Virus record (IMG/VR): IMGVR_UViG_2565956610_000009
Span: 1 to 29,055 of that record
Direction: 5' to 3' (one strand)
DNA from: a virus
Lineage: Duplodnaviria > Heunggongvirae > Uroviricota > Caudoviricetes
DNA length: 29,055 nt
Below, one piece after another: positions 26,850 to 27,597 of this stretch (position 1 is its first letter; every line of letters begins with the position of its first letter). The notes beneath the pieces were generated by a model that saw nothing but the letters and a program-made list of their open reading frames with translations, did not search any database and had not been told where the DNA came from. The translations under genes and the position numbers were made by a program.

Positions 26850-27415
26850 GCACTGCTATCGCTATTGCAAAAGAATATGCCAGTCTGATTGACCTGTTAG
26901 AAACCGCCGATGAACTGACGCCAGAGATGATCGCCGACACGCTTGAAGGCATGGAAGGAGAACTGGGAGACAAACTGGACGCCATGATGGTCATCTGCCG
27001 TAATTTACAGGGCAATGCCAATACCTGCGCTGAAGAAATGTCTCGCCTGGCAACCCGTAAGACGTCCTTTGAAGGCAAGGAAAAAGCAATTCGAAAGCAT
27101 ATGCTCACCTGCCTGCAAGCTGCTGGCCTGGATAAACTGAAAACCGCAAAAAACACATTTACTGATGCACAGGGGGCTATCCGGGTAATTATCGATAGCA
27201 AAGATAAGATCCCGGATGAGTATGAGGGCGTGTCACTTGTTGATGTAGAAACGGTTATTACACCAAACAAGCGAGCCATTAAAGAAGTGATTGAATCTGC
27301 GGAGGCGGTTGCCGCCGAAATACTGGCGCGTGGAGAAACACCACCAGCCGAGTTATTAAACCCGGTACCAGGCGCACATCTGGAACGCGGCGAACGGTCA
27401 CTGAGGATACGCTAA
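26846..27415 (+). CDS. Siphovirus Gp157-like protein
   Basis: 189-aa ORF after the SSAP gene; N-terminal ELTPEMIADTLEGMEGELGDKLD and C-terminal PGAHLERGERSLRIR fit my recollection of the Gp157 family. Confidence 0.5.
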   Translation: MSTAIAIAKEYASLIDLLETADELTPEMIADTLEGMEGELGDKLDAMMVICRNLQGNANTCAEEMSRLATRKTSFEGKEKAIRKHMLTCLQAAGLDKLKTAKNTFTDAQGAIRVIIDSKDKIPDEYEGVSLVDVETVITPNKRAIKEVIESAEAVAAEILARGETPPAELLNPVPGAHLERGERSLRIR

Positions 27416-27597
27416 TGCTTAAACTCACATTAAAGCGTGGTGACGCGGTTCACCTGGTACTTGCCGATGGTACCAATGGCATTATTGAAGCACGGAGCCG
27501 CTGCGAACTTGGGCTACACCTGCCAGAAAACATTAAGGTCACTCGGGAGAAATCGGCATTCACCCCACAAGAACTGATTACGCCTAATCAGAAATAA
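27415..27597 (+). CDS. CsrA-like small protein (60 aa)
   Basis: Ungapped alignment with E. coli CsrA (61 aa) gives identities at M1, L2, L4, T5, G9, G33, P37, V42, R44, E45, including the VxREE RNA-binding segment; strong SD GAGGA; ATGA overlap with upstream gene. Confidence 0.5.
   Translation: MLKLTLKRGDAVHLVLADGTNGIIEARSRCELGLHLPENIKVTREKSAFTPQELITPNQK

Follow-up and report, generated by a model that had tools for sequence, protein, structure and literature searches.

A 60-residue protein from the early-left operon of an Escherichia coli prophage, at best a very distant relative of CsrA

The 60-amino-acid protein encoded at positions 27415-27597 of the window (the whole stretch of viral DNA that we analysed, 29,055 nucleotides) can be assigned to phrog_2482, a small uncharacterised family of Enterobacterales prophages and Pectobacterium phage ZF40. 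The resemblance of this family to the post-transcriptional regulator CsrA is suggestive, being above chance in targeted sequence tests and below every curated threshold. As it beats chance in these tests and fails both the curated thresholds and the structure comparisons, the protein can be related to CsrA only very distantly, if at all. It is possibly a divergent, putative CsrA-like RNA binder, a reading to which we give somewhat less than even credence. Taken separately, homology or a shared fold with CsrA comes close to an even chance, and actual CsrA-like RNA binding by this putative RNA binder is unlikely. A small beta protein unrelated to CsrA is almost as likely as the remote CsrA-like reading.

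The gene and the segments of its product that matter for the comparison are the following.
Positions 27415-27597, + strand: 60-aa ORF (MLKLTLKRGDAVHLVLADGTNGIIEARSRCELGLHLPENIKVTREKSAFTPQELITPNQK), 60 codons from ATG to TAA; phrog_2482; RefSeq WP_000916334.1, 'hypothetical protein'.
Positions 27403-27407, + strand: Shine-Dalgarno sequence GAGGA, 7 nt 5' of the ATG of the 60-aa ORF, read directly off the sequence.
Positions 27415-27432, + strand: residues 1-6 (MLKLTL), predicted strand 1, aligning with CsrA beta1 (MLILTR).
Positions 27508-27549, + strand: residues 32-45 (LGLHLPENIKVTRE), aligning with the CsrA beta4-beta5 signature IGVNAPKEVSVHRE.
Positions 27574-27594, + strand: residues 54-60 (LITPNQK), the family-specific C-terminal tail L-I-x-x-N-Q-K.

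The 60-aa ORF is a real gene under purifying selection. Between homologues, pS ranges from 0.65 to 0.88 (synonymous sites are saturated) and pN from 0.16 to 0.49, and one close pair of homologues shows a pS of 0.14 and a pN of 0, its amino-acid sequence being unchanged. As pN is far below pS, the ORF must be a selected protein-coding gene. Its ATG shares bases with the TAA of the upstream Gp157 gene (TAATG at 27413-27417), an overlap which implies translational coupling. A spurious ORF or a non-coding spacer at 27415-27597 might be suspected from the shortness of the reading frame (60 codons) and from an annotation that reads merely 'hypothetical'. However, this explanation is effectively refuted by the strong Shine-Dalgarno sequence, the start/stop overlap, the low pN relative to pS, the PHROG match (E = 2e-36) and the conservation of length and position across several genera, at 43-98% amino-acid identity between homologues. 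Neither a sigma-70-like promoter site of its own nor a + strand terminator-like site was found flanking the gene, which is thus not an autonomous moron. Among the database relatives, P0031 has a frameshifted middle part, which corresponds to the +1-frame ORF of the locus (window 27437-27577, + strand), and it is back in frame at the C-terminal LITPNQK.

The match to phrog_2482 in PHROGs is full-length (residues 1-60 on profile positions 1-61 of 61, E = 2.3e-36). Among 5.8 billion proteins searched, we found 31 relatives, nearly all of 59-61 residues, with E. coli, Salmonella, Citrobacter, Enterobacter, Klebsiella and Yokenella as named sources. Only a few more divergent members (57-67 residues) came to light in an exhaustive profile search of 1.84 billion cluster representatives. 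The long proteins returned by the same search, which carry ankyrin and DxVHVVWxDxTxG repeats, were rejected as artefacts, because many weak partial matches had been summed. Using tblastn against phage genomes, we detected gp05 of Pectobacterium phage ZF40 (43% identity) and homologues in two phages deposited as Stenotrophomonas phages (69% identity). The likeness to ZF40 gp05 is one of true family membership, and the gene occupies the same place there, between a Gam-like gene and xis. Residues proper to the family and invariant in it are G9, D10, H13, D18, G19, G22, I24 and R29, together with the LIxxNQK tail, which is kept even by the most divergent members. We found no mention of the phrog_2482 accessions in the literature. 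In vB_SmeS_BUCT708, deposited as a Stenotrophomonas phage, the small protein is 69% identical to the E. coli one and the early-left region resembles Klebsiella/Enterobacter prophages gene for gene; its host assignment may deserve checking.

The element itself is an E. coli prophage with lambda-like regulation and head genes and a contractile tail, located at a tRNA-Leu gene adjoining pgsA-uvrC-uvrY. A 1.3-kb stretch around the 60-aa gene is present at 95% identity or more in 509 (~9%) of the 5,426 complete E. coli genomes, always in the chromosome, and a megablast search of phage genomes gave no match to the element. It is fair to speak of an 'early-left operon', as the gene lies on the strand, and on the side of the cI-like repressor, that lead to xis and int. 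The original prediction had placed a 60-aa ORF at 27415-27597 in such an operon, and this placement holds, the genes running from the cI-like repressor side through the YdfE-like and Gp157 genes to xis and int. Two genes directly precede it.
Positions 24633-26849, + strand: YdfE-like / exonuclease-related protein, 738 aa, first gene of an invariant three-gene cassette.
Positions 26846-27415, + strand: Siphovirus Gp157 / 'Mu Gam-like' protein gene, always directly upstream of the 60-aa gene.

In every genome examined, the cI-like repressor gene is followed by one or two small ORFs, the YdfE-like gene (~670-740 residues), the Gp157 gene and the 60-aa gene, and then, often after another small ORF, by xis and int. 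The excisionase type (DUF4224, Exc or HTH_17), the integrase and the integration site vary, while the trio of YdfE-like, Gp157 and 60-aa genes is invariant (cassette loci: window 24633-27597, + strand, L082, L083 and L097-L104). As gene order is constant despite these differences, the 60-aa gene moves within a fixed cassette, of which it is the third member. PADLOC matched no defence system to the 60-aa gene, its neighbours or the cassette proteins, and nothing useful on Gp157 or YdfE was found in the literature.

Several other features of this region may be recorded. The xis gene (27807-28070) overlaps the longest integrase ORF, which starts at 28009 (window 28009-29055, 348 aa); the RefSeq integrase start is equivalent to 28039 (338 aa), and the end of xis is overlapped whichever start is used. 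About 1 kb without annotated genes (23272-24281) separates the cI-like gene from the next ORF and contains a cluster of - strand terminator-like hairpins (24030-24138). Between 22500 and 29055, there are 21 terminator-like sites, against 8.7 +/- 3.1 expected. The tRNA-Leu prophage is found beside pgsA-uvrC-uvrY in E. coli SA186 (L001, 14387-17930), and a more divergent prophage locus (L097, 7225-10174) adjoins pgsA-uvrC and the adjacent response-regulator gene as well. UvrY is the response regulator that drives CsrB and CsrC; the position of the prophage beside uvrY is probably a coincidence of att-site choice.

The case for a relationship with CsrA starts from an ungapped alignment with the E. 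coli protein. Such an alignment had been proposed at MLxLT and GxxxPxxxxVxRE, and it is borne out by the identity of M1, L2, L4, T5, G33, P37, V42, R44 and E45. With G9, which is also identical, register 0 yields 10 identities (~22%) and 22 positives over residues 1-45. The BLOSUM62 score in this register is +31, against -32 +/- 14 for 100,000 shuffles of the query (p = 3e-5, for a single register and target chosen beforehand), and the pattern seen originally is therefore real. Pfam CsrA (PF02599) is the sole Pfam match of the query, with residues 1-45 falling on profile positions 1-45. It also recurs, weakly and collinearly, in 17 of the 23 close relatives (the best, at E = 9e-4, also misses the cut-off). 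The BUCT708 homologue reaches E = 0.0065, and a hand-made consensus of the whole family E = 0.0019 (18.6 bits).

Profile-profile comparisons with hhalign point the same way. CsrA profiles were built from enterobacterial sequences, IMG/VR contigs, PDB-verified Bacillus and Geobacillus proteins, divergent phage CsrA, and 80 Bacillota, Spirochaetota and other genomes. Against the first of them, phrog_2482 obtained P = 0.0088 (4.6% probability); support rose sharply once divergent phage CsrA had been added (P = 2.9e-4, 40%), and the last broadening step was marginal (P = 2.4e-4, 44% with the broadest profile). The close phrog_2482 subset alone gave P = 8.4e-5 (60%), and the seven most divergent members alone P = 0.004 (8%), with their FPxxVxxxR aligned to APKxVxVHR. 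None of 500 column shuffles reached the real score of 22.6 (null 10.1 +/- 2.3, maximum 19.3); this null was run on the preceding, less diverse CsrA profile, whose score is near-identical to that of the broadest one. Similarly, there is an in-register correlation between the hydrophobicity profiles of the two families (r = 0.44, permutation p = 0.002), and both families are hydrophobic at core positions 2, 4, 12, 14, 32, 34, 40 and 42.

The RNA-binding face of CsrA is formed by beta1 and the beta4-beta5 segment, with R44 being critical. From the alanine-scanning literature, we take the RNA-binding residues to be L2, L4, R6, R7, V40, V42, R44 and I47. At these positions, phrog_2482 keeps L2, L4 (variable among its divergent members), I/V40, V42 and R44, and shows R7->K, R6->L and I47->S/G. 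The only positions strongly conserved in both families are M1, L2, P37 and R44; L2 hardly varies in either, and 94% of phrog_2482 sequences carry R44. At the level of aligned residues, the similarity thus appears to fall on the two segments that form the RNA-binding surface of CsrA.

Other sequence comparisons disagree. The Pfam score of the query is not significant (E = 0.097; 13.1 bits, against a gathering score of 27), so that the search with PF02599 that had been suggested as a check goes against CsrA membership. NCBIfam CsrA matches neither the query nor any of its 23 relatives, six of the most divergent phrog_2482 members have no Pfam CsrA match, and plain BLASTP finds no local alignment between the protein and E. 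coli CsrA. At E <= 0.001, the exhaustive profile search of 1.84 billion representatives recovered no CsrA. PDB sequences, searched with the single sequence and with the profile, yielded no CsrA either, only designed TIM barrels at E ~0.5. In addition, the conservation patterns of phrog_2482 and CsrA are uncorrelated (r = 0.07), the family invariants listed above being without CsrA counterpart. Finally, the profile alignments contain compensating 6-residue indels in the N-terminal half, and only the two ends can thus be said to align robustly with CsrA.

Compared with the CsrA/RsmA family as a whole (PF02599; E. coli CsrA, PDB 1Y00; P. fluorescens RsmE, 2JPP), the protein is alike in its ~60 residues, its MLxL(T/S) start, its five predicted beta strands at similar positions and its P37-x-x-V/I-x-V/I-x-R44-E45 segment. 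It differs in lying under every curated threshold, in having a middle third that is unalignable without indels, and in lacking R6, G15-D16, G27, Q29, A36, E46 and I47, all but the last of which are CsrA-invariant residues absent from phrog_2482 as a family. It has instead its own invariant G9-D10, D18-G19, G22 and R29, and its LIxxNQK tail stands in place of the C-terminal helix of CsrA, from which this tail is absent. Its predicted monomer is closed, whereas CsrA is strand-swapped.

Genuine phage-borne CsrA proteins provide a yardstick. A 2020 survey found csrA in 30 of 2,517 phage genomes and in 161 plasmids; its PSI-BLAST search for viral CsrA was iterated to convergence, and ZF40 (whose gp05 belongs to phrog_2482) goes unmentioned beside the 30 phages listed (PMC7366521). 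In Bcep22-like phages, the csrA product is a possible virion protein (PMC9144972). In our own searches, E. coli CsrA matched 99 phage records by tblastn, and 364 IMG/VR contigs encode close CsrA relatives; B. subtilis CsrA used as a query detected no relatives in viral contigs. Some of the genuine csrA genes occur in early-left operons of other temperate phages, as in Providencia phage PSTCR8lys and in Vibrio phage VvAW1, where csrA lies directly 3' of a DEDD exonuclease gene. The divergent phage CsrA-like proteins (Bcep22 gp54, CsrA of E. coli phage Pondi, an ORF of gut-phage scaffold MT837633 and Vibrio phage VvAW1 gp26) share with the 60-aa protein a phage origin, a length of ~60-70 aa and, for some of them, a position in an early operon beside a nuclease gene. 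The sequence following the R44-equivalent arginine is Pro-rich in Bcep22 gp54 and Pondi CsrA. One start, MLKLSLKPGE, resembles that of phrog_2482; it belongs to a gut-phage protein which is unquestionably a CsrA (58 bits with Pfam CsrA) and which scores P = 7e-6 with the phrog_2482 HMM. Unlike the 60-aa protein, however, the divergent proteins pass Pfam CsrA and keep the A-P-K/R-x-V/I and G-D turn signatures. In Pseudomonas aeruginosa phages YMC11/07/P54, BR228a and phiC725A (L093, L094 and L095), the CsrA homologues are 123 residues long and consist of a CsrA domain and a conserved ~65-residue extension.

Against this yardstick, the description of the gene as a phage copy of the global regulator does not stand. 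Genuine phage CsrA proteins are 57-91% identical to E. coli CsrA, and the most divergent accepted ones still score 32-63 bits with Pfam CsrA, compared with 13 bits here. A true phage-borne csrA allele, one that would rescue a csrA mutant and would itself be titrated by CsrB/CsrC, is thus very improbable: beyond the ungapped motif match and the fact that real csrA alleles are known in phages (PMC7366521), nothing speaks for it. The identity of ~22% over 45 residues, the failure of BLASTP to align the two proteins and the loss of the C-terminal helix, R6, I47 and the GD(E/D) and G-x-Q turns all speak against it. On current evidence, the 60-aa protein is not a copy of host csrA and no member of PF02599.

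Structure prediction was carried out with AlphaFold2 on the 23-sequence family alignment. The monomer model (mean pLDDT 77) has strands at residues 2-6, 11-15, 21-25, 30-34 and 41-45, no C-terminal helix and a Pro-rich stretch from residue 46 to 60. As a control, an E. coli-type CsrA monomer predicted from an equally shallow alignment (pLDDT 77.9) shows strands 11-14, 18-26 and 29-35 and a helix at 44-60. From these coordinates, the middle strands of the two proteins lie at similar positions. In the query model, strands 1 and 5 pair with each other within the monomer, whereas the control leaves beta1 and beta5 unpaired. The latter is as expected, since CsrA is a strand-swapped homodimer in which beta1 and beta5 are exchanged between subunits. 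The monomer model of the 60-aa protein matches none of the solved CsrA structures, and the comparison of predicted folds that had been proposed alongside the HMM search thus also turned out negative. As modelled, the monomer gives no support to CsrA membership; as for quaternary structure, a swapped dimer may be formed.

The two exchanged strands bear on another explanation, in which the protein would be an antagonist of CsrA. A CsrA-derived half-domain could form mixed strand-swapped dimers with host CsrA, or occupy its partners, and so inactivate it during induction. This explanation is inferred from the retention here of these two segments, beta1 and beta5. However, conservation does not extend to the middle strands, which make up most of the CsrA core, and in the monomer model strands 1 and 5 are paired with each other; we regard an antagonist of this kind as highly unlikely, if slightly less so than a true csrA allele.

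For the CsrA-like idea as originally put forward, the lack of a significant HMM match for the query and the fold of the monomer mean that the claim nearly fails. What supports it comes from the family: CsrA recurs as the weak top match of the relatives, and hhalign gives P = 2.4e-4, with probabilities of 44-60%. The same body of evidence can be read in another way, namely that the protein is a small beta protein without relation to CsrA, which it would resemble by convergence or by chance, through amphipathic beta strands and a P-x-x-V-x-V-x-R-E turn. It would then be an accessory subunit of the YdfE-like/Gp157 cassette, docking through its L-I-x-x-N-Q-K tail and binding no RNA, and the role of the cassette would be related to DNA ends or recombination, or directed against the host. 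We consider this a real possibility, although one that falls short of an even chance. The order of the trio, which is the same in all contexts seen despite differing xis/int modules and attachment sites, and the translational coupling to Gp157 would fit an accessory subunit, but synteny may mean block inheritance and not joint function. The best-conserved positions of the family, including the C-terminal tail, lack a CsrA equivalent, the five-stranded monomer model is self-contained and without a CsrA match, and every curated threshold was failed. On the other hand, CsrA is a recurrent and almost the only Pfam match, with a full-length collinear alignment; hhalign returns P ~1e-4 to 3e-4, a score reached by 0 of 500 shuffles; and the similarity lies exactly on the RNA-contact segments of CsrA, at identical coordinates in proteins of equal length.

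Downstream of the gene, two further features separate it from xis.
Positions 27605-27658, + strand: RNA hairpin, starting 8 nt past the stop codon of the 60-aa gene; conserved.
Positions 27647-27871, + strand: 74-aa ORF, phrog_27062 (E = 1.4e-32), between the 60-aa gene and xis; unannotated in the RefSeq record examined.

The hairpin is very stable (-30.4 kcal/mol, z = -6.7 against shuffles), and its 3' arm sequesters the Shine-Dalgarno sequence GGAGGA (27636-27641) and the ATG (27647) of the 74-aa ORF. The 3' end of this ORF overlaps the start of xis, and its equivalents have been called in ZF40 (gp04) and at some other loci. Versions of the hairpin in BUCT708, Klebsiella-type loci and L097/L098 show compensatory changes (4 of 18 pairs); the ZF40 version is shorter. 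As a U-tract on the - strand occurs only in the window's version, a + strand element of translational or RNase III control is more likely than a terminator, and the hairpin probably controls translation or processing ahead of xis/int. A search of Rfam with positions 22000-29055 gave no match. Since GGA is missing from some versions of the hairpin, its presence is not evidence for the CsrA reading.

The remote CsrA-like reading is the one we adopt, at the strength given at the start, and it leads to the following scenario. The 60-residue, all-beta protein is the third gene product of the fixed YdfE-like/Gp157 cassette, and its gene belongs to the early-left operon of a ZF40-like temperate phage, with which it is co-transcribed and in which it is translationally coupled; given this arrangement, the protein is presumably made upon de-repression of the operon. 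It would be a remote relative of the CsrA fold that lacks the helix, retaining the segments of the RNA face, namely beta1 (M-L-x-L-T/S) and beta4-beta5 (hydrophobic-x-hydrophobic-x-x-P-x-x-V/I-x-V/I-x-R-E), with the equivalent of CsrA R44. A small, probably dimeric binder of single-stranded RNA of this kind could modulate the translation of phage or host messages. Candidate targets would be GGA or Shine-Dalgarno-like motifs, including those of the conserved downstream hairpin that sequesters a Shine-Dalgarno sequence, or the host Csr RNAs. In its most specific form, the scenario makes phrog_2482 an unrecognised, LIxxNQK-tailed and cassette-bound offshoot of the CsrA fold that has lost the helix, and whose putative RNA binding through the beta1/beta5 face (for example to the downstream hairpin) times the expression of the downstream ORF, xis and int, or interferes with the host Csr system; so specific a proposal is improbable as a whole. 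The suggestion made at the outset, that the protein could reprogram host translation or sequester Csr sRNAs, is speculation.

The hairpin at 27605-27658 is the obvious first candidate RNA for the 60-residue protein. If the relationship is not real, the gene is an ordinary uncharacterised small phage protein gene. As phage-borne csrA is already documented as a concept, the surprise would be limited in any case. If the remote relationship is true, the CsrA superfamily would be enlarged by a clade that wholly escapes standard annotation (PGAP: 'hypothetical'), and temperate phages would offer a concrete case of a Csr-type RNA binder inside a recombination/excision operon.
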